Of a stretch of 64,000 bases of DNA, positions 2,762-53,062 are shown one piece after another. The notes below the pieces were generated by a model that made no database searches, was not told the origin of the DNA, and worked only from the letters and a program-made list of their open reading frames with translations. The DNA is from Candidatus Saccharimonadota bacterium (GTDB lineage: Bacteria; Patescibacteriota; Saccharimonadia; Saccharimonadales; AWTP1-31). Position 1 is the first letter of the stretch. Every line of letters starts with the position of its first letter. The translations under genes were made by a program, and so were the position numbers. Location of the stretch: contig JAPLYT010000012.1 of assembly GCA_026395435.1 (NCBI GenBank), forward strand, positions 86,332 through 150,331, read 5' to 3'.

Positions 2762-4042
2762 TTACAGTTCTCGCGTTGGCAAATCGCCCCTCTTGAGAGA
2801 TTTAATCTTTCTGGCGTACCAGATAGCACTTGGGCGAATCGTTCGCTTCATGCCATGTTCACGATCTACATGTACCAATCCAAATTTTGGCCACCAGCCA
2901 AACTTCCATTCAAAATTGTCCAGTAAACTCCAATGGAAGTACCCTCGGACATCTACTCCTTCACTCATCGCCCGCTCCATTGCTACAATAGTTTCTTCTA
3001 TCCACCATTGCCGGTATTGGTCGGTGCTGTCGGCTACGCCATTTTCGGTGATGATAATTGGAGTCTTGTAGTGAGCCCATACTCGCACCAGAAGTGGGTA
3101 CAAACCTTCTGGTTCCATATACCAACCAAGGTCGTTTTTTGGTGCCCCAGGGTTATCTGGCTTAAACCCTTTGTAGTAATCGGTAAAATAATAGTTGAAG
3201 CCCACAAAATCTTGTTGTTTACGGATTCGGTTCAAGAACCACCAATTCCAAGCAAATCGCATCCAAGCAGTTGCAAATTCATCAAGCACGTTGTGAGGGC
3301 GCTTCGCCTGTATATTGGCCAGCTGAGCAGCAATACCAATCTGAATACTAGGCTTGGTTTTTTTAAAAATCTTATACGCTTGGCGATGGGCGTATACCAA
3401 ATTAATATACACTTTCATACAAGTATAAAAACTCTTTTTCTCGGGCACCCATTCTCCAGTCACATAGCCGAACACTGCATAGACATTTGGCTCGTTGAGA
3501 GTGATGACATATTTGAGTTCTGAGCCGTATTCATCGCCAATCTTCTGGACAAATCGTCGCCAATGGACCAAATTTTTTCGCTTTTCAAGCCCACCTAGTT
3601 CTGTAAACCATGTAGGCATTGTCCAATGCCATAGATTCAAAAAAGGCTCAATGCCCCGCTCCTTGAGTTCGGCAATATAAGTATGGTAATGAGCGATAGC
3701 ATCCTCGTCCCATACTCCCTGTTCTGGTTCAATACGAGACCATTCAATGCCAAATCGAAATGCATTAAGTTGCAGTTTTCGTGCAATATCAAAATCTTCT
3801 TCAAATCGCCTATAGTGGTCGACACCTTTGCCAGATACGTAGTTATTGGGGTCGCTGGCTTGAGCCTTGACTGACGGCCAATCAGGCGTACTTTTCGATA
3901 ACCGTTCTGTGGAGGTCTTGGCAAGGTCTGATGCGTGCGCAAGCTCCCATTCACTCCACTGATTAACCGTGCCACCTTCTACCTGGTGACTGGCAGTACT
4001 CGCTCCCCAAAAAAACCCAGCTGGAAATATCTTTTTAGTCAT
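2762..4042 (-). CDS. glycoside hydrolase family 1 beta-glucosidase
   Basis: 426-aa ORF with FFWGASTASHQVEGG at the N-terminus. It has the acid/base motif TLNEPN and the nucleophile motif ITENG. Confidence 0.9.
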   Translation of the reverse strand: MTKKIFPAGFFWGASTASHQVEGGTVNQWSEWELAHASDLAKTSTERLSKSTPDWPSVKAQASDPNNYVSGKGVDHYRRFEEDFDIARKLQLNAFRFGIEWSRIEPEQGVWDEDAIAHYHTYIAELKERGIEPFLNLWHWTMPTWFTELGGLEKRKNLVHWRRFVQKIGDEYGSELKYVITLNEPNVYAVFGYVTGEWVPEKKSFYTCMKVYINLVYAHRQAYKIFKKTKPSIQIGIAAQLANIQAKRPHNVLDEFATAWMRFAWNWWFLNRIRKQQDFVGFNYYFTDYYKGFKPDNPGAPKNDLGWYMEPEGLYPLLVRVWAHYKTPIIITENGVADSTDQYRQWWIEETIVAMERAMSEGVDVRGYFHWSLLDNFEWKFGWWPKFGLVHVDREHGMKRTIRPSAIWYARKIKSLKRGDLPTREL

Positions 4043-4128
4043 TACACCCAGTATACGCTAAGAACCTAGGCGGGCGTTAGATCTTTTATGGTGGGTTCGA
4101 TCTTGTTTTCTTTTAGTCAGCTGTCTAT

Positions 4129-4746
4129 TTACTTGGTGTGCTCATTGGTTTTACTTGGAGCACTACTTTTCGGCTTGGACGCTCGACCGTTGACCCTGTA
4201 TGCGAGTGCGGCACGCTGTTTGTCGAGACGGTCGATGTATCGCTCGTAGGCATTATATAAGTTGGAATAATGTCCGTTAGGCGTGAGGAGATTCTCGAGT
4301 TTATTTTCACTGGCCAAATACTCAACGAGGCTATAAAAGTCACCATCGCCACTGACGATGACCGCTTTATCGTACTGTTTCATTTCTTTGACAGCCCACA
4401 GCACAAGTTCTGCGTCGACATTGCCTTTGACGGGCTTTTTTTCTTCCACTTTTGGCTCTTCATTTGGCTTCAGCGCAGCTTCTGGTTTATGCACCCGCGT
4501 CATATCGAATGTCGGCTTCAGTACCACGAGATACCCAAGTTCATGCATTTTTAAATACATTTCTTCGTGCTCAGGCATATGACCAATGAACATAAATGCT
4601 TTTTCTACTCCGTACTTATCGCTCAGAAAGGTCCGAAATTTACGCCAGTCCATTTTCCAGCCCATCTTCTGAACACCGAGATTAAGGTTTTGATTATCAA
4701 TAAATGCGTAGTTATGCGGTTTTGGTTGTTTTGCCATTTGATTCAA
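4129..4746 (-). CDS. NYN/LabA-like (PIN-fold) nuclease domain protein
   Basis: 205-aa ORF with YAFIDNQNL, GNVDAELV and VSGDGDF acidic motifs, characteristic of LabA-like NYN domains. It has a basic Ser/Lys-rich tail. Confidence 0.8.
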   Translation of the reverse strand: MNQMAKQPKPHNYAFIDNQNLNLGVQKMGWKMDWRKFRTFLSDKYGVEKAFMFIGHMPEHEEMYLKMHELGYLVVLKPTFDMTRVHKPEAALKPNEEPKVEEKKPVKGNVDAELVLWAVKEMKQYDKAVIVSGDGDFYSLVEYLASENKLENLLTPNGHYSNLYNAYERYIDRLDKQRAALAYRVNGRASKPKSSAPSKTNEHTK

Positions 4747-4768
4747 TAATACCAGAGTTTACTCGACT

Positions 4769-5794
4769 TTACTCAGATGCGCCGAAAGCCATATCCTCAG
4801 AAGCGCCCTCAGTGACCCGCAGCGGCTTCTTGCTCCTTATCTCGTAGCGACGTCCTGTCAGTGGTGATTCGATGTAATCGTCGTTCAGTAGGTTGATGAA
4901 TTTGGTCAGATCTTTGACATCCATAATGATAATTGCCCCGTCATTGTCAGTCATCAGGTTGATCCCAAGATCTTCAGCGTGATCCATAAGATCAGATTGT
5001 TTAATAGCACTAGCATCAATTTTTTGCAGTTTGTTTACGAGGCTCTTCTGCCCTTGCACCAAATTCTCCCAGCTGAGTCCAATGTCGAAATTAAACGTGA
5101 AGTTAGCCTGAATTTCTTGCATTTTCTTGAGCGCAATTCCGTACTTCTTGGCATTATAGCCAAATAGCTGTTCCAGACGGGTTTGGCTAAAAGCATAGAT
5201 ATCTTGATCGAGCACAAGCAGTTGATTGTCTCCGGGCATGCGCATACTACCTTCTGCGTCGAATGGTACGAACTTACCGTCTCGAAGCATCCACGAAGTT
5301 GCACCTTTCATGACCATACTTCCAGGTAAAAGTTTGATGATATAAAACGGATACGGAATATCTTTATGACGGCAGCGTGCAAGTACACCCTTTACGCGCT
5401 TGAGGTCATGCTCTTCTTCGACAAAATTCTCGATGACACTTTCCTGCGTCTTTACCCAATTAAGTAGCTCTTGAGCTTTCTGTACGTTTGCCAATCTAGT
5501 ACGTTGCAAAACGTTTTCTTCTGCTTCCCCGTCTTCAAAATCTCGAACTTGCAATCCTTCTGCTGCGCCTTGGAGGACATATTCCAGTAGGCCATCGATG
5601 AGCAACGGCTGGAAAGATCGAACCAAATCTTTACTCACTTTTGTACGGTATACAACGTAATTTTTATTGAAAAGAAAGAGGTCGATATCTAATTCTTCTT
5701 TGATGGGCACCAGGTTGTTGGCCCACAAAAATACGTCAGTTCGCTCTGTGCTTGGTTCTTGATCCGCTATAGCAGATACTGCTTCTTCATCCAT
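4769..5794 (-). CDS. hypothetical protein, possibly DUF4868/KwaB-like
   Basis: 341-aa soluble ORF with GGAG 7 nt before the ATG. The C-terminal FINLLNDDYIESPLTGRRYEIRSKKPL and central LLVLDQDIYAFSQTRLEQLF resemble my recollection of KwaB (DUF4868) motifs. This is unverified. Confidence 0.5.
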   Translation of the reverse strand: MDEEAVSAIADQEPSTERTDVFLWANNLVPIKEELDIDLFLFNKNYVVYRTKVSKDLVRSFQPLLIDGLLEYVLQGAAEGLQVRDFEDGEAEENVLQRTRLANVQKAQELLNWVKTQESVIENFVEEEHDLKRVKGVLARCRHKDIPYPFYIIKLLPGSMVMKGATSWMLRDGKFVPFDAEGSMRMPGDNQLLVLDQDIYAFSQTRLEQLFGYNAKKYGIALKKMQEIQANFTFNFDIGLSWENLVQGQKSLVNKLQKIDASAIKQSDLMDHAEDLGINLMTDNDGAIIIMDVKDLTKFINLLNDDYIESPLTGRRYEIRSKKPLRVTEGASEDMAFGASE

Positions 5795-38915: not shown

Positions 38916-40343
38916 CTAATAACTTTGAGCAAACAACCACTGTCTGGTAGCTGGCTCTCCAGTAAAGAAGTCCACTCCGTTTCCCTCTGGCCAGTCTATA
39001 GGACTACAGCTAGACTTTGCTTTCGTCTCTTCTTTTATTTTTTTCTCTATATCTGGGTTATCGTTCCAGTAAACCTTAATATATCCTTTGTGTTCAGCTA
39101 ATATTTTCTTAAACTCATCATAATTCTTAGCTTCGCGTGTATTTTCTTCAATAAAAGTTTTCGATTGCAATAGCATGGTTGACTGGATTTCATCAAGCAA
39201 CTTTTTAACATCGTCTACTAGATTCTTTCTATCTAACGTAACTTCTTCTTGGGTATCACGTCTCTTTACCGTAATGGTTTGTGCTTCTACTTCTTTTTCG
39301 CCAATTTTAAATATCAATGGTGCTCCTTTGACTTCCCACCTATTCAATCTAAAACCAAAGCTAGAATCACCGCGCGCATCAGTTTTAACTCGAACATTTA
39401 TGCTCGTTAATACATCGCTGATTTCCTTGCAATAATCAAGCATTTTGTCTTCAGCTCGAACAGGGACGATTGCAATCTGTACAGGCGCCAACTTTGGCGG
39501 CAAGCGTAGACCATTATTATCGCCATGGGCTAATATCAAACCCCCGATAGATCGCGTCGATAGCCCCCAGCTTGTTTGCCAGACATAAGTATCGATCGAG
39601 TTCTGATCTTGAAATTTAACATCAAACGCTTTTGCAAAGTTCTGGCCTAGATCATGCGAAGTGCATGATTGCAGAACTTTTCCACTTGGCATCATCGTTT
39701 CATAGCTAAGAGTAGTATCGGCCCCAGCAAATGTTTCTGCTTTAGACTTATAGCCTACATATCCGCTCATAGCAAAATATTCTTTATAGAGATCTGAGTA
39801 TGTCTTCATAGCCCATTCTTGCATTGCTTTAGCTTCTTCGTGTGTAGCGTGTGCAGTATGGCCCTCTTGCCAAAGAAACTCACTCGTTCTAATAAAAGGC
39901 ATCGTCCTCTTTTCCCAGCGTACTACACTTCCCCATTGATTTATTAAGATCGGAAGATCGCGCCAAGAATGAACCCATTTTGAAAATGAGCTATACATGA
40001 TGGTTTCACTAGTTGGTCTAACCACGACAGGTTCCTGCAATTTCTCGCCACCACCATGAGTTACTACTGCAAGTTCAGGTGCAAAACCTTCCACATGACT
40101 TTTTTCTTTTTCCAAGAAGGACATTGGAATGAACATAGGAAAATACACATTCTCAACGCCTTTTTCTTTAATACTTTTATCTAGAGTTTTCTGAACTTGT
40201 TCCCAAATTGCATATCCATAGGGCTTAAAGATCATTGTCCCTTTTACAGGCCCATAGTCAGCCAAATCAGCAAGCTGTATAAGTGTCGTATACCAATCTG
40301 ACATGTCGCCTGTCTTCTCTGGAAGTAATTTCTTTGATGTCAT
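38916..40343 (-). CDS. proS: proline--tRNA ligase (archaeal/eukaryotic-like type, no INS editing domain)
   Basis: DMSDWYT...RPTSE.. class II motifs and the C-terminal tail ...AQSY. The start at 40343 has AGGAG 7 nt upstream; the track ORF extends to 40358. Confidence 0.93.
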   Translation of the reverse strand: MTSKKLLPEKTGDMSDWYTTLIQLADLADYGPVKGTMIFKPYGYAIWEQVQKTLDKSIKEKGVENVYFPMFIPMSFLEKEKSHVEGFAPELAVVTHGGGEKLQEPVVVRPTSETIMYSSFSKWVHSWRDLPILINQWGSVVRWEKRTMPFIRTSEFLWQEGHTAHATHEEAKAMQEWAMKTYSDLYKEYFAMSGYVGYKSKAETFAGADTTLSYETMMPSGKVLQSCTSHDLGQNFAKAFDVKFQDQNSIDTYVWQTSWGLSTRSIGGLILAHGDNNGLRLPPKLAPVQIAIVPVRAEDKMLDYCKEISDVLTSINVRVKTDARGDSSFGFRLNRWEVKGAPLIFKIGEKEVEAQTITVKRRDTQEEVTLDRKNLVDDVKKLLDEIQSTMLLQSKTFIEENTREAKNYDEFKKILAEHKGYIKVYWNDNPDIEKKIKEETKAKSSCSPIDWPEGNGVDFFTGEPATRQWLFAQSY

Positions 40344-40364: not shown

Positions 40365-40823
40365 CTACCTTACAATTCTAATTCTAGTCATATCGAACAT
40401 GCCTATTCCTAATTTTGCTGCCTGCCACCGAACAGCATCTCGGCTAGCCAATGTTTGACTATGACGAAATCTGTAGTTAGTTCTCAAAAATTCACTACCA
40501 ACATTACTCAAAGCATTTCTGCCTGCGTGATGGGCAATCCTACGTGAAACAGCCTCTAATTTATCAAACTCATCTATTCCGTCTCCGAATATATTGCCCA
40601 GTGTCTTTGTCGCGTCGGCGTCTAATTTACTGGCTCTTGTTGCCATAACATTTAGTGACTTTAGGCCAAGCTCACCCATCATTACTGCCTCTGCCAGGCC
40701 AACACCTTCAACAGTATCACCTCTTTTTAGGACGCCTCCGGCTAGCAAGAAATCCTCGGCCACATTCCGCCAACCAAAGTCAATTAACGCCTGGGTGTCT
40801 TCTAATATTCTTTCTTTACTCAT
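40365..40823 (-). CDS. hypothetical protein co-oriented and nearly contiguous with proS
   Basis: 152-aa ORF with AAGGAG 7 nt before the ATG. It is probably helical. I recognised no motif and it does not look like YbaK/ProX. Confidence 0.6.
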   Translation of the reverse strand: MSKERILEDTQALIDFGWRNVAEDFLLAGGVLKRGDTVEGVGLAEAVMMGELGLKSLNVMATRASKLDADATKTLGNIFGDGIDEFDKLEAVSRRIAHHAGRNALSNVGSEFLRTNYRFRHSQTLASRDAVRWQAAKLGIGMFDMTRIRIVR

Positions 40824-40851
40824 AGTTATCTCCTTATCAACATCAAGAAAT

Positions 40852-40873
40852 AAAAAATCGGCCCGGAGGCCGC
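40852..40873 (-). terminator. intrinsic terminator/attenuator hairpin upstream of the 40823 gene and proS
   Basis: Minus strand: CGGCC-UCCG-GGCCG (40872-40859), then A and U6 (40858-40852). Confidence 0.6.
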
Positions 40874-40907
40874 TCTTGATGCTGATGATTTAATTTTTAT
40901 GGTAAAT

Positions 40908-40976
40908 CTAGCCAAGCCTCCGGTGACGAATCGGTGCTGGGGGAGTAATAAATGTTACTAGATTAAATGTAATCAT
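40908..40976 (-). CDS. candidate 22-aa leader peptide MITFNLVTFITPPAPIRHRRLG
   Basis: The ATG at 40976 lies 7 nt after a -10 hexamer, suggesting a leaderless mRNA. Pro codons are at 40943-40938 and 40934-40932. The TAG stop is at 40910-40908. The ORF's 3' end contains the antiterminator strand. Confidence 0.4.
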   Translation of the reverse strand: MITFNLVTFITPPAPIRHRRLG

Positions 40977-40983
40977 AAACAAT

Positions 40984-41012
40984 ATTTTAACACTATTATT
41001 TCTATTTGACAA
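40984..41012 (-). promoter_or_regulatory. sigma70-like promoter TTGTCA-N17-TAAAAT
   Basis: The -35 is at 41012-41007 and the -10 at 40989-40984 (minus strand), with a 17-nt spacer. It overlaps the stop codon of the CPBP protease gene. Confidence 0.5.
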
Positions 41013-45907: not shown

Positions 45908-46234
45908 ATGAAAAAAGAACTACACCCAAAGAACTACCGCCCTGTCGTATTTAAAGACCTCAATAACGATGTCATGTTTTTGACACAGTCGACTGTTGCG
46001 AGTGATGCAACTATCAAGTGGGAAGATGGCAACGAATACCCTCTTATAACAGTCCATATCAGCAGCGCCTCACATCCATTCTTCACTGGTCAAGAAAAGA
46101 TGATCGACATTGAAGGTCGAGTTGACCGATTCAAGGCTCGTCAAGATGCTGCTGCAAAGCGTAAAGAAGCGTCTATCGCCAAAGCGAACAAAGTTCGTGT
46201 CCGTAAAAACGCCGACACTGTCGACGCAAAATAG
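45908..46234 (+). CDS. rpmE: 50S ribosomal protein L31, type B (no CxxC)
   Basis: [10 protein letters not shown]...HPFFTG. It has no zinc-binding cysteines and a Lys/Ala-rich C-terminal extension. The track ORF start at 45863 lies inside the promoter. Confidence 0.9.
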
Positions 46235-46248
46235 CTACATTCATTAAA

Positions 46249-46285
46249 AACAGCCAGAATTATATCTTTCTGGCTGTTTTCTTTT
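46249..46285 (+). terminator. rho-independent terminator after rpmE
   Basis: 11-bp stem AACAGCCAGAA / TTCTGGCTGTT with an 8-nt loop, followed by TTCTTTT. Confidence 0.75.
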
Positions 46286-46311: not shown

Positions 46312-47373
46312 ATGAATAGCAAACAACAACATCTCCAAGAAGAATTCAATATCCTACAGGAACAACTACAAGATCCTGCTATTTTTAGTTCCAAAAACTA
46401 TCCCAAGATGGCAAAAAGATCGAGCGAGCTTGAAAAGACGCTTCAACTCTTCAATGCAATTACAGAACTCAAGGAACATAGCCTAGAAGCAAACACTATG
46501 AGCCAAGATTCTGACGCAGATATTGCCGCAATGGCCAAAGAAGAGCTTGATGAGTTAACTGCTTCTATCGAAAAAGCCGAACAAGAACTAGCCCTCCTGC
46601 TGACTCCAAAAGACCCTAATGATGAACGTGACGCAATAGTAGAAATTCGAGGAGCAGCCGGAGGCGACGAAGCGAGCTTATTTGCCGGAGATCTATTTAG
46701 AATGTATACCCGTTGGTGTGAGACGAAAAACTTCAAAGTGGAACTCATAAACGAAAACGTCAATGAAGTTGGCGGATTCAAAGAAGTAGTCTTTGCCGTT
46801 CGTGGAGTGGATGTATTTAAAGTATTAAAATTTGAAGCCGGCGTCCATCGAGTCCAGAGAGTGCCAAGCACTGAATCACAAGGCAGAATCCATACTAGTA
46901 CCGTAACGGTCTCGATTCTGCCCGAAGCAGAAGAAACAGATATAGAAATAAGTCCTCAAGACCTCCGTATCGACGTCTATCGAAGTAGTGGCCACGGAGG
47001 ACAGAGCGTGAATACAACCGATTCTGCCGTTAGGATCACCCATATACCATCCGGTTTAGTAGTTACATGCCAAGATGAGAAATCTCAGATCAAAAATAAA
47101 GATAAGGCTATGGGTGTGCTTCGGTCTCGCCTTCTCCAGATCAAGATCGATGAAGAGCAAAAGCAACTATCGGATGCTCGCAAAAAACTTGTCGGTTCAG
47201 GTGATAGAAGTGAAAAAATCCGGACCTACAACTTCCCTCAAGATCGGATAACCGACCATCGCATTGGCTATAGTCGCAGTAACATTCCCGGTGCCTTAAA
47301 TGGGGAGATTGATGATCTTATCGAGGCGCTCCAATTGTACGAACAACAGTTGATCCATAATGAAAATAGCTGA
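46312..47373 (+). CDS. prfA: peptide chain release factor 1
   Basis: 353-aa ORF with a PxT tripeptide (PST) and GGQ (GHGGQSVN). Confidence 0.96.
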
Positions 47374-50981: not shown

Positions 50982-51845
50982 TTACTTAGAAATTATCGAA
51001 ATCAATCGTTTTAACTCTGCTTCACTTGAAAATTTTATCTCTAATTTCCCGCCTTTGGCAGTTCTTCGAAGTGTAACGGGTGTTTTTAAGTATTTAGTCA
51101 ATCGTTCAGTCTGGGGGGATGTGGTGGCAACTTTCTTCTCCGCACCTGTACTGCTGGTAGTTCCTTTTTTGTGCGCAACCACGTAACGCTCAGTTTCTCG
51201 GACAGACCATTTTTTTTGAATGATTAATTTCAATAAATGTATTCTGTCTGTGTCGAGTTTTATGCCCAGAATTGCTCGGGCGTGACCTTCAGAAATCTTT
51301 TCATCTCTGAGCGCTTGTTGCACTTCATCGGGTAATTGCAATAACCGTGCGCTGTTTTGGACTGTTGCAGCTGCCTTACCGAGTCGAGTACCGATAGTGG
51401 CGTAATCGAGACTAAACTGCTGGTGTAGATATTCTATCGAAACCGCCTGTTCGAGTGGAGATAAATTTACTCGCTGCACATTCTCTACTAAAGCGAGCTC
51501 TAGACGTTCAAGTTGCTCAGCGGATCTGACTATAGCCGGTACCGTCTTGAGCCCAGATAATTTTGCTGCACGCCATCTTCGCTCCCCCGCAATAATATAG
51601 TACTTCTCGCCATTCGGAGTCACCACGAGTGGCTGGATGATGCCATGTTGTTTTATAGATTGAGATAATTCTTTCAAATTTTCTTCGTCAAAGTGTACCC
51701 GAGGCTGTTCCGGATTTGCTTGCAAGGCAGCAATCGATATATTTTGTATACGATTATCTTCCGAAGACAAAATAGACGTATCAAAATTTTTCGGTATAAG
51801 TGAATCAAAACCTCGACCTAATTTACTTGCTGACACGATTATCAA
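50982..51845 (-). CDS. parB: chromosome partitioning protein ParB
   Basis: 287-aa ORF with GIIQPLVV, IIAGERRWRAA and an HTH region. Confidence 0.9.
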   Translation of the reverse strand: MIIVSASKLGRGFDSLIPKNFDTSILSSEDNRIQNISIAALQANPEQPRVHFDEENLKELSQSIKQHGIIQPLVVTPNGEKYYIIAGERRWRAAKLSGLKTVPAIVRSAEQLERLELALVENVQRVNLSPLEQAVSIEYLHQQFSLDYATIGTRLGKAAATVQNSARLLQLPDEVQQALRDEKISEGHARAILGIKLDTDRIHLLKLIIQKKWSVRETERYVVAHKKGTTSSTGAEKKVATTSPQTERLTKYLKTPVTLRRTAKGGKLEIKFSSEAELKRLISIISK

Positions 51846-52584
51846 TCTCCTTTGCTAGATTCTTATAACTTCTTGCACCCTTAGACCATTTATCGTGCTC
51901 TAGGATTGATTTACCAAAACTAGGTGCTTCTGCCAGTCGAACATTACGAGGGATAACGGTCTTAAGGAGCTTCGTATTAAAGTGTTTTTTTACTTCAGCT
52001 ACAACTTGCTCAGACAATGAAGTACGGGCATCATACATTGTGATGACTATCCCCAGAAGTTCTAATGAACTATTTAACCCAGCTCGTACTCGTTGGATAA
52101 CATCAAGTAATTGGCCAAGTCCTTCTAACGCATAGTATTCGGCTTGAACAGGGACCAATACCAAGTTTGCAGCAGTGAGTGCATTGAGACTCAATAGACC
52201 AAGCGATGGTGGGCAGTCGATCAATACATAGTCATATATAACATCCGCTAATGCTACCTTGAGCCTAAATTCTCGTTTTTCTTCACTGGCTAAATCTACC
52301 TCAGCTGCGGCAAGTTGAGAATTAGTCGGCATGATATGGACGCCGGCTAGACCAGTCTCAGTAATAAGTCCTGATGCAGGAATTGTTCCAAACAGGACAT
52401 CATACACCGTACTGTCTAAATGCTGTTTCTCAAGACCCAAACCACTTGTTGCATTTCCCTGAGGATCAAGATCGACTATCAGCACTGAACGCCCTAGCTT
52501 AGCTAAGTAGGCTGCAAGATTAATGACAGTCGTCGTTTTACCGACACCGCCCTTCTGGTTTAAGACTGCAATTATTTTTCCCAT
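51823..52584 (-). CDS. parA: chromosome partitioning ATPase ParA/Soj
   Basis: 253-aa ORF with the deviant Walker A NQKGGVGKTT and DCPPSLG. Confidence 0.92.
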   Translation of the reverse strand: MGKIIAVLNQKGGVGKTTTVINLAAYLAKLGRSVLIVDLDPQGNATSGLGLEKQHLDSTVYDVLFGTIPASGLITETGLAGVHIMPTNSQLAAAEVDLASEEKREFRLKVALADVIYDYVLIDCPPSLGLLSLNALTAANLVLVPVQAEYYALEGLGQLLDVIQRVRAGLNSSLELLGIVITMYDARTSLSEQVVAEVKKHFNTKLLKTVIPRNVRLAEAPSFGKSILEHDKWSKGARSYKNLAKEIDNRVSK

Positions 52585-52693: not shown

Positions 52694-52717
52694 AAAAAAC
52701 ACCCCAGTTGGGGTGTT
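52694..52717 (-). terminator. rho-independent terminator after rplU
   Basis: Minus strand: AACACCCC-AACU-GGGGUGUU followed by UUUUUAAU. Confidence 0.75.
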
Positions 52718-52744: not shown

Positions 52745-53062
52745 TTAGGCTATCTTGGTGATCTTGATAACAGTACTGCGTTGTCGGTGTCCGTGGATTT
52801 TATGAACGCGCTTTTTCGCTTTGTAGCGGATTGCGAGAACTTTGTCTCCGAGGATCTGCTGTTCTACGATCTCGGCTTGTACCTTAGATCCGGTTACTTC
52901 AGGAGTACCAACAGCAACATTATCACCATCAATCACCATGAGAGGAACGAAACTAGCCGTTTTCTCATCATCGTTCAAAAGCTCAACTTCAAGAGTTTGG
53001 CCTTCAGTTACTAGATATTGTTTTCCGCCTGTAGCGATAACTGCTTTTTTAGTGTTGCGCAT
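52745..53062 (-). CDS. rplU: 50S ribosomal protein L21
   Basis: 105-aa ORF with AVIATGGKQYLV...KKRVHKIHGHRQ. Confidence 0.93.
   Translation of the reverse strand: MRNTKKAVIATGGKQYLVTEGQTLEVELLNDDEKTASFVPLMVIDGDNVAVGTPEVTGSKVQAEIVEQQILGDKVLAIRYKAKKRVHKIHGHRQRSTVIKITKIA

Follow-up and report, generated by a model that had tools for sequence, protein, structure and literature searches.

A candidate proline-codon leader-peptide attenuator upstream of a small gene and proS in a Saccharibacterium

Introduction

Leader-peptide attenuators are known for the synthetase genes pheST and have been predicted for trpS and leuS in Streptomyces (PMC1262725). Pro-codon leader open reading frames (ORFs) which respond to Pro-tRNA(Pro) have been described for Salmonella (mgtP of mgtCBR and mgtL of mgtA; PMC3641672), and leaderless sensory short ORFs of mycobacteria act on translation (10.1101/834739). 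Here we describe a leader on the minus strand of a 64-kb stretch of contig JAPLYT010000012.1 from a Candidatus Saccharimonadota bacterium (positions 86,332 to 150,331; this whole stretch of 64,000 nt is called the window, and positions refer to it unless a locus is named). The leader precedes a small gene, which codes for a protein of 152 aa without assigned function, and proS, which codes for prolyl-tRNA synthetase (ProRS). We consider it likely that this leader is a ribosome-mediated, Pro-codon-dependent transcription attenuator which controls both genes. An initial annotation of the window, made from its letters alone, had proposed attenuation of the trp/his/pheST type for proS, and the comparison of leaders reported below argues for that proposal. 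The annotation had also held that no Pro-codon leader controlling proS was described; in the literature searched by us, there is indeed no leader peptide for proS, Pro-codon leaders being known elsewhere (mgtL, mgtP).

Saccharibacteria, like the candidate phyla radiation (CPR) in general, are ultra-small and host-dependent, and CPR bacteria lack most amino-acid biosynthesis. To our knowledge, almost nothing is known about gene regulation in Saccharibacteria and other CPR bacteria. If our interpretation is correct, this would be the first leader-peptide attenuator described for proS in the literature searched, and a leaderless ORF would feed a classical terminator/antiterminator switch. An organism without proline biosynthesis would then still monitor the charging of its Pro-tRNA and adjust the synthetase. 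For an uncharacterised family of small proteins, the attachment to ProRS biology would provide a testable context. The principle itself is already known; the target gene proS, the lineage, and the leaderless form are new.

Proposed mechanism and comparison with described systems

The coordinates of the elements are listed in Table 1. Regions 2 and 3 are the 5' and 3' arms of the antiterminator, and region 3 pairs with region 4 in the terminator. Transcription would begin at or beside the AUG at 40976, and the leader ORF would be read as a leaderless message. With plentiful Pro-tRNA(Pro), the ribosome would reach the UAG and cover region 2 (CCGGAGGCU), region 3 would pair with region 4, the CGGCC/GGCCG hairpin with its U6 tract would form, and transcription would stop about 125 nt from its start. 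When Pro-tRNA(Pro) is scarce, the ribosome would stall 17-20 nt before region 2, its A site holding the first or second Pro codon. The free region 2 would then pair with region 3 over 9 bp, the terminator would not form, and transcription would continue through the small gene and proS. Charging of tRNA(Pro) would be restored by the additional ProRS. Changing region 2 from CCGGAGGC to CCGCUGGC would be expected to give constitutive termination.

The leader resembles pheST and the predicted trpS and leuS attenuators in its short ORF rich in cognate codons, its alternative antiterminator and terminator hairpins, the cognate synthetase as its target, and the homeostatic control of charging that would result. 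Unlike pheST of Escherichia coli with its PheM leader peptide, it concerns proline and proS, has a leaderless ORF rather than a Shine-Dalgarno start, belongs to a CPR host, and shows no sequence homology. A conserved small gene between leader and synthetase and an extra conserved helix around the terminator also set it apart from pheST. As in trpL and hisL, a ribosome at the stop codon would mask region 2, and a stall at the regulatory codons would free it. The distances are similar as well: region 2 follows the regulatory codons at about 20 nt, and the terminator ends 50-60 nt past the stop codon. Differences from trpL and hisL are that the 1:2 hairpin is weak and not significant, that there are only two to three regulatory codons, and that the target is a synthetase rather than a biosynthetic operon.

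With mgtP and mgtL, the leader shares clustered Pro codons, and we propose for it the same chain in which slow translation at low Pro-tRNA(Pro) switches the leader structure and raises downstream transcription. The Salmonella leaders, however, control Mg2+ transport and virulence genes, have Shine-Dalgarno starts, are long, and integrate multiple signals, whereas here the proposed target is ProRS itself, in a direct feedback loop. The sequences are unrelated; homology with mgtL or mgtP was rejected, the context being proS in Saccharibacteria and no Rfam leader family being matched. Mycobacterial poly-Cys attenuators likewise have a leaderless sensory short ORF as first cistron, with stalling at codons for a single amino acid (10.1101/834739), but those ORFs free a sequestered ribosome-binding site, while a terminator with a co-evolving antiterminator points to transcription here. 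The proS T-box of Firmicutes has the input (charging of tRNA(Pro)) and output (terminator read-through upstream of proS) which we propose for this leader; in contrast to it, there is no Stem I, specifier loop, T-box sequence, or Rfam match here, and sensing would be by the ribosome and not by direct binding of the tRNA.

Homologous leaders

The same leader occurs in the contigs L001 to L005, whose identity to the window is about 88%. More distant leaders were obtained via a profile search which resulted in 13 clusters of the small protein. A first metagenome scan with the small-protein alignment gave no matches; a second scan with the alignment reordered gave one new locus, L103. Overall, 10 further distinct leader sequences were found, every one upstream of a homologous small gene (113-152 aa) and proS. 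Among the 80 proS loci of GTDB species representatives and the small-protein loci, the element was never seen away from this gene pair.

The 11 distinct leaders have a common architecture which consists of a promoter, a start codon 6-8 nt past the -10 box, a short ORF, a spacer, a terminator, and a Shine-Dalgarno sequence, except that group C (L094, L095, L101) is without a clear terminator. Groups A and B share this architecture and differ in sequence. The group A ORFs have 22 codons (window, MITFNLVTFITPPAPIRHRRLG; L001, MIKFNLVIFVTPPAPNRHRRLG; L098, MSLAQKVYFNVPPTPICHRRLC; L099, MSLAHALLFQVPPAPICHRGLC), those of group B have 16 codons (L014, L091, and L097, MSYQYTLSVLPVPTPV; L093, MSYQYIFSVLLVPTPA; L103, MKYQNIFSVLPTPTPV with a GTG start). 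In L014, the leader is diverged yet alignable and is followed by a 138-aa homologue of the 152-aa gene. The promoters of the relatives keep consensus features (TTGGCA-16-TGtTACAAT in L001; TATAAT, TATAGT, or TATACT in the others). At this level, the comparison demonstrates the elements themselves, their conserved spacing, a coding-like ORF with conserved Pro codons, the co-variation of regions 2, 3, and 4, and a strict linkage to proS.

The stretch 40935-40840 is the best-conserved one of 3 kb when compared to the 88%-identical relative (about 2 differences where about 11 are expected). In the close relatives (L001-L005), all six ORF substitutions are within or beside the 5' two-thirds. Locus L006 was dropped as evidence for conservation because, as a mosaic with full identity to the window over 41385-40785, it is not independent.

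Table 1. Features of the leader and the downstream genes, with positions in the window.
Feature	Position	Strand	Description	Basis
Promoter	40984-41012	minus	-35 TTGTCA 41012-41007; 17-nt spacer; extended -10 TGtTAAAAT 40992-40984 (TG 40992-40991; TAAAAT 40989-40984)	motif scan
Leader ORF	40908-40976	minus	MITFNLVTFITPPAPIRHRRLG; 22 codons + TAG; ATG 40976, stop 40910-40908	sequence, ORF list
Regulatory codons	40932-40943	minus	CCC CCA GCA CCG (Pro Pro Ala Pro)	sequence and leader comparison
Region 2 (antiterminator 5' arm)	40915-40923	minus	CCGGAGGCU, in the last codons of the leader ORF; octamer CCGGAGGC 40923-40916	pairing
Region 3 (antiterminator 3' arm)	40863-40871	minus	GGCCUCCGG; complement of the octamer at 40870-40863	pairing with region 2
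Intrinsic terminator	40852-40872	minus	CGGCC-UCCG-GGCCG (40872-40859), then A + U6 to 40852	terminator scan
Lower stem, 5' strand	40873-40886	minus	AUCAGCAUCAAGAG, abuts the terminator hairpin	minimum free energy fold and comparison
Lower stem, 3' strand	40836-40849	minus	UUCUUGAUGUUGAU, immediately 5' of the Shine-Dalgarno sequence	minimum free energy fold and comparison
Shine-Dalgarno sequence and 152-aa gene	40365-40835	minus	AAGGAG 40835-40830; ATG 40823, stop 40365; no assigned function	first structural gene
proS	38916-40343	minus	archaeal/eukaryote-like prolyl-tRNA synthetase, 475 aa; ATG 40343	sequence

The leader ORF

The ORF of the window begins with an AUG 7 nt past the -10 hexamer and thus at or beside the predicted 5' end of the transcript, a position which leaves no room for a Shine-Dalgarno sequence. 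With the start at 6-8 nt after the -10 box, and with transcription presumed to begin there, the leader ORF is leaderless in all variants. This layout is not restricted to the leader: in about 17 of the window's 64 genes, TAnnnT lies 6-7 nt ahead of the ATG and a Shine-Dalgarno sequence is absent, so leaderless mRNAs seem to be common in this Saccharibacterium. Our search for literature on leaderless mRNAs in Saccharibacteria found none. Examples of leaderless-like starts on the minus strand are those at 4042, 8236, 23784, 29518, 38277 (lysS), 43011 (rseP), 44346, and 62821, with TATACT- or TATAGT-like hexamers.

Several features are consistent with translation of the ORF, a translatable short frame at the 5' end. 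Its length is fixed within each group; there are no indels in the ORFs, whereas several occur in the spacer right behind. Substitutions are wobble-biased. L098 and L099 differ at 6, 2, and 10 sites in codon positions 1, 2, and 3, respectively, and both changes between L014 and L097 are synonymous. The stop codon TAG is replaced by TGA at the same position in L093 and L103.

Groups A and B align in frame, and all of their leaders have Pro codons at nt 37-39 and 43-45. A third Pro codon is found one or two codons upstream of this P-x-P core in all of them but L093. The motifs are PPAP, PPTP, PVPTP, PTPTP (L103), and (L)VPTP, in each case upstream of proS. The four codons of L099 are CCG CCC GCT CCT compared to CCC CCA GCA CCG in the window, so that all three Pro codons have changed at the wobble position only. 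For comparison, Pro accounts for 3.6% of the residues in the proteins encoded in the window, and CCC is the rarest Pro codon.

The initial annotation had considered that the PPxP motif might report elongation factor P (EF-P) or proline translation capacity. Only the P-x-P part of the motif is conserved between groups A and B; the Pro-Pro pair is confined to group A, and group B has no consecutive prolines. EF-P sensing was therefore rejected as the conserved signal. The conserved input would be the supply of Pro-tRNA, with EF-P sensing optional at best.

The proposed terminator/antiterminator switch

An intrinsic terminator precedes the first structural gene, and an alternative antiterminator pairing both excludes it and co-varies with it. 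The 8-bp pairing pointed out by the initial annotation was found as proposed and extends to 9 bp with the next U of region 2. In group A, CCGGAGGCU pairs with GGCCUCCGG, and region 3 comprises 4 nt of the terminator 5' arm, the entire loop, and the first base of the 3' arm. Because the 2:3 pairing covers an arm and the loop of the terminator, it excludes the terminator hairpin. In group B, GCUGGGG pairs with CCCCAGC over 7 bp, region 3 there consisting of CCCC, the 5' arm, and the three bases at the start of the loop of the terminator CCCC-AGCMAA-GGGG-UAUUUUU. The terminator loops are complementary to region 2 in both groups, and region 2 begins at nt 54 of the transcript in both, despite the difference between 22 and 16 codons in their ORFs.

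The terminator stems align column for column and are 100% paired across groups A and B, with two of the four shared pairs swapped from G-C to C-G. None of 500 shuffles reached the observed score of the stem. Cognate 2:3 duplexes have -17 to -21 kcal/mol, cross-group duplexes -8 to -12 kcal/mol. A single change within group A, A to G in region 2 of L099, keeps the pair as G.U. Dinucleotide shuffles, 2000 per leader, gave an upstream segment as complementary to the terminator 5' arm plus loop as region 2 is in 13 cases for the window, 9 for L014, and 1 for L093. The whole leader folds with z = -4.2. The comparison which the initial annotation had suggested (a conserved Pro-codon ORF and compensatory changes in the pairing across relatives) thus turned out in its favour, the leaders of groups A and B retaining P-x-P while stem and 2:3 pairing co-vary.

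For all eight leaders of groups A and B, the transcript up to the hairpin end was folded with ribosome footprints imposed as constraints. When the A site was placed on the stop codon, region 2 was masked and the terminator was the best fold in 8 of 8 leaders. When it was placed on the first or second Pro codon, the antiterminator was favoured by 1-6 kcal/mol, again in all eight. These computed folds agree with the logic laid out in the initial annotation (masking by a ribosome at the stop codon, release by a ribosome stalled at Pro).

A 4:5 hairpin can form in group B (L014 3503-3522 and the equivalents in L093 and L103), in which region 4 plus UAU pairs with AUGCCC, AUACC, or GUACC past the U-run. 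It has a UUUU loop, is 100% paired, and shows three one-sided changes. It appears to match a hairpin in group C.

A lower stem around the terminator

A second helix, which had not been noticed in the initial annotation, encloses the terminator and is present in the minimum free energy fold (Table 1). Both group A and group B retain it, with compensatory changes. The group B version comprises 10 bp, is 100% paired, and shows two double changes and two one-sided ones; other variants occur in group A. As the 3' strand of the helix is made only after the U-tract, the helix can have no share in the decision to terminate and can form only in read-through RNA. It ends just before the Shine-Dalgarno sequence, which is left free. 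Sequestration of the Shine-Dalgarno sequence, either by the Pro-codon region or by the lower stem, was considered and rejected because it is not conserved.

The small protein and the exchange of proS

The small-protein family comprises 13 clusters of 101-152 aa; the member with 101 aa looks truncated, the others have 113-152 aa. No match was found in Pfam, NCBIfam, or PDB sequences. The AlphaFold model is all-helical with a mean predicted local distance difference test score (pLDDT) of 64, and Foldseek found no fold match in the PDB (best E = 1.1). An Arg-rich segment, ERVARRLMHxAGRxAL, is conserved.

Wherever downstream sequence exists, proS directly follows the small gene, whatever the type of ProRS. 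Behind the module are found archaeal-type enzymes (window, L014, L103), bacterial enzymes with an editing domain (L091, L093, L096), and 414-aa enzymes (L094, L095). L014 and L091 are syntenic on both sides at 78-91% nucleotide identity and near-identical in the leader and the small gene, but their proS genes are unrelated at the nucleotide level: L014 codes for an archaeal-type ProRS of 472 aa (4001-5419), L091 for a bacterial-type ProRS of 565 aa with an editing domain (3453-5150). This indicates an in-place replacement of proS, with the leader and the small gene upstream left unchanged. On this comparison, the leader is linked to proline charging and not to one enzyme. The leader is always found with the small protein and is absent from most Saccharibacteria proS genes; the small protein thus may be the primary regulated product or a part of the circuit.

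The 152-aa gene varies to an unusual degree. In L006 (651-1109 vs. 40365-40823 of the window), nucleotide identity is 60-83% in 60-nt windows through most of the 152-aa gene (75% aa identity). The drop follows the identical region 41385-40785 and points to recombination or to diversifying selection confined to this gene.

Alternative explanations

Several points weigh against a Pro-codon-dependent attenuator for proS. From the elements described above we infer the transcription start, termination at 40852, translation of the ORF, stalling at its Pro codons, and a response to proline. When no ribosome is imposed, the fold with the terminator has almost the same energy as that with the antiterminator. 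With 5 bp in the window and 4 bp in group B, the stem of the terminator is short. The covariation of regions 2, 3, and 4 rests on essentially one split, that between groups A and B, without variation within the groups. A 1:2 hairpin, which could have a pause or anti-antiterminator role, can be drawn in every leader (-7 to -11 kcal/mol) but is no more stable than in shuffled sequences, so it was not counted as a significant element. CCN codons can also pair with the G-rich region 2, so the conserved CC could partly reflect RNA pairing. Clustered Pro codons are present in groups A and B but not in the group C leaders L095 and L101, which have a single terminal Pro codon and neither a clear terminator nor a clear antiterminator, nor in L011, which has one Pro codon and an antiterminator that is not significant (889 of 2000 shuffles).

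The distribution also weighs on this side. A sequence search for homologues of the leader in the 80 proS loci of GTDB species representatives found none, and only one of these loci (L014) has the small gene. In the species representatives of Saccharibacteria, proS mostly lies straight behind the CPBP or rseP gene, without a leader, and the Saccharibacteria proS loci of which the upstream region was read have neither a leader of group A or B nor the small gene (L011 being a possible analogue). Since proS has no leader in most relatives, the element may serve the small gene first.

With the hairpin 130 nt past the CPBP stop codon, the hairpin and U6 might also be the end-of-operon terminator of frr-uppS-rseP-CPBP. 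The promoter-like site and the ORF would then be functionless, and the small gene and proS would be expressed by leaky read-through. Canonical terminators are scarce in this genome, and the end of an operon would be a place to expect one; promoter-like sites in the 10-kb region are no more frequent than in shuffled sequences. However, a plain terminator needs none of the features which are conserved or co-vary in the leaders (promoter, start position, ORF length, Pro codons, complementarity to region 2), and no other 100 nt within 3 kb are as well conserved as those that reach from the Pro codons to the lower stem. In addition, the closest species representative, L021, which has no leader and no small gene, retains a similar promoter sequence directly before proS, with no terminator. 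We therefore consider this explanation highly improbable. We also judge it very unlikely that the ~125-nt transcript is a small RNA acting elsewhere, or that the peptide of 16-22 aa is the functional product, with a merely positional link to proS. Its own promoter and terminator and the strong nucleotide conservation would fit such a role, and an attenuator-derived trans-acting RNA is known (rnTrpL; PMC6614838), but no Rfam family is matched and the element always accompanies the small gene and proS. The N-terminal half of the peptide is unconserved, and groups A and B share just P-x-P. The C-terminal I-[RC]-H-R-x-L-[GC] of group A is conserved with two synonymous changes, yet its codons coincide with region 2, and the constraint may be on the RNA. 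A trans-acting role could coexist with attenuation.

The switch might instead be set by a bound factor. This could be uncharged tRNA(Pro), by analogy with a T-box, or ProRS itself, by analogy with the thrS operator, or else the small basic-tailed protein on the lower stem. Such a factor would account for the covarying lower stem, which the ribosome model leaves unexplained, and for the constant presence of the small protein with its Arg-rich conserved segment; proS is also a classic T-box target in Firmicutes (PMC2836559). But it would leave the in-frame start, the fixed ORF length, and the wobble-only changes of the Pro codons unexplained, and the 3' strand of the lower stem, made after the U-tract, cannot affect termination. 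That different ProRS architectures were swapped behind an unchanged leader argues against ProRS-specific binding. The 50 nt upstream of region 2 diverge freely and have no conserved helix, with nothing like the Stem I of a T-box. Rfam gave no match at the gathering threshold for the whole window. In permissive searches of the 1-kb region (E up to 10) and of L091 and L095 (E up to 1), no T-box was matched and only chance-level matches to Rfam were obtained. A T-box or another known Rfam leader or small RNA is thus excluded, and we consider control by any bound factor quite unlikely. The least probable explanation in our view is translational control, in which a ribosome stalled on the C-rich Pro codons would keep them from pairing with the small gene's Shine-Dalgarno sequence; the mycobacterial poly-Cys ORFs are a precedent (10.1101/834739). 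In the minimum free energy folds of the window and L001, CUCC of the Pro-codon region does pair with GGAG of the Shine-Dalgarno sequence, but over just 4 bp, and this pairing is absent from the folds of L098, L099, and group B. Moreover, the lower stem stops short of the Shine-Dalgarno sequence, and the combination of hairpin, U-tract, and co-evolving antiterminator is characteristic of regulation through transcription termination.

A broader alternative is that a three-part proline-charging module has been kept while ProRS was exchanged. It would consist of the leaderless Pro-codon sensor, the covarying read-through helix, and the obligate helical, basic-tailed partner. The small protein would then be a factor associated with ProRS or tRNA(Pro), or a feedback regulator which binds the lower stem and provides a second input to the attenuator. 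We regard this as unlikely, though less so than the explanations weighed above. Leader-peptide attenuation of the small gene and proS thus remains the interpretation which we favour.

Divergent leaders

Group C leaders (L095 610-700; L101 365-460; L094 1-100) lie upstream of the small gene and a 414-aa ProRS. They have a leaderless ORF of 16 codons which ends with CCC UAA, a hairpin CRCCC-UAAG-GGGUG which spans the Pro codon and the stop codon, and a second hairpin with a U-run in its loop. Group C could not be reconciled with the same mechanism, its ORF ending in Pro-stop, with a hairpin over the stop codon and the U-run inside a hairpin loop.

In L011 (3830-3960), from a relative within Saccharimonadales, ProRS identity is 69% and the small gene is absent. 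Directly before proS lie a promoter, a leaderless ORF of 13 codons (MQKCLKIVVPKYS), and a strong terminator (AACCCCUC...GAGGGGUU-U5). L011 was rejected as a further example of the same device because its antiterminator is not significant.

Genomic context

The five elements listed in the initial annotation (promoter, ORF, octamer, its complement within the terminator, and downstream genes) were all found on the minus strand at the positions given there (Table 1). The gene order is uppS, rseP, CPBP/Rce1-like protease, an intergenic region of 178 nt, the 152-aa gene, proS, greA, and lysS. The start of proS is 21 nt past the stop codon of the small gene, with its own GAGGAG 8 nt upstream. The promoter of the leader overlaps the final codons of the upstream CPBP/Rce1-like gene; it scores 10/12 and is among the four best promoter-like sites within 10 kb. 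In the leaders compared, the gap between U-tract and Shine-Dalgarno sequence is just 20-45 nt, which leaves no space for another promoter, so that an operon transcript must cross the terminator.

The terminator is the sole perfect G+C stem with a U-tract in the 10-kb region and one of about five canonical intrinsic terminators in the window. Another is ACACCCC-AACT-GGGGTGT-T6 (52699-52716, minus strand), which lies between the co-oriented genes 52745-53062 and 51823-52584. The hairpin 46248-46279 can be read as a terminator from either strand and is located between a gene ending at 46234 and one starting at 46312.

Some loci carry repeats upstream of proS. In L097 (1075-1140, 1205-1290) and L091 (2650-2700), large perfect inverted repeats, e.g., GTCATCCTGAACTTGTTTCAGGATC...GATCCTGAAACAAGTTCAGGATGAC, are found upstream of the promoter of the group B leader; they lie in a long intergenic region and may be miniature mobile elements. 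In L012, the same G+C-rich hairpin of 22 nt (ACCCCGCGGCTTGCCGCGTGGG) occurs at 3383-3404 and 3919-3940, flanking an unrelated 143-aa ORF upstream of proS. This repeated hairpin resembles a repetitive extragenic palindromic (REP) or miniature inverted-repeat transposable element (MITE)-like repeat.

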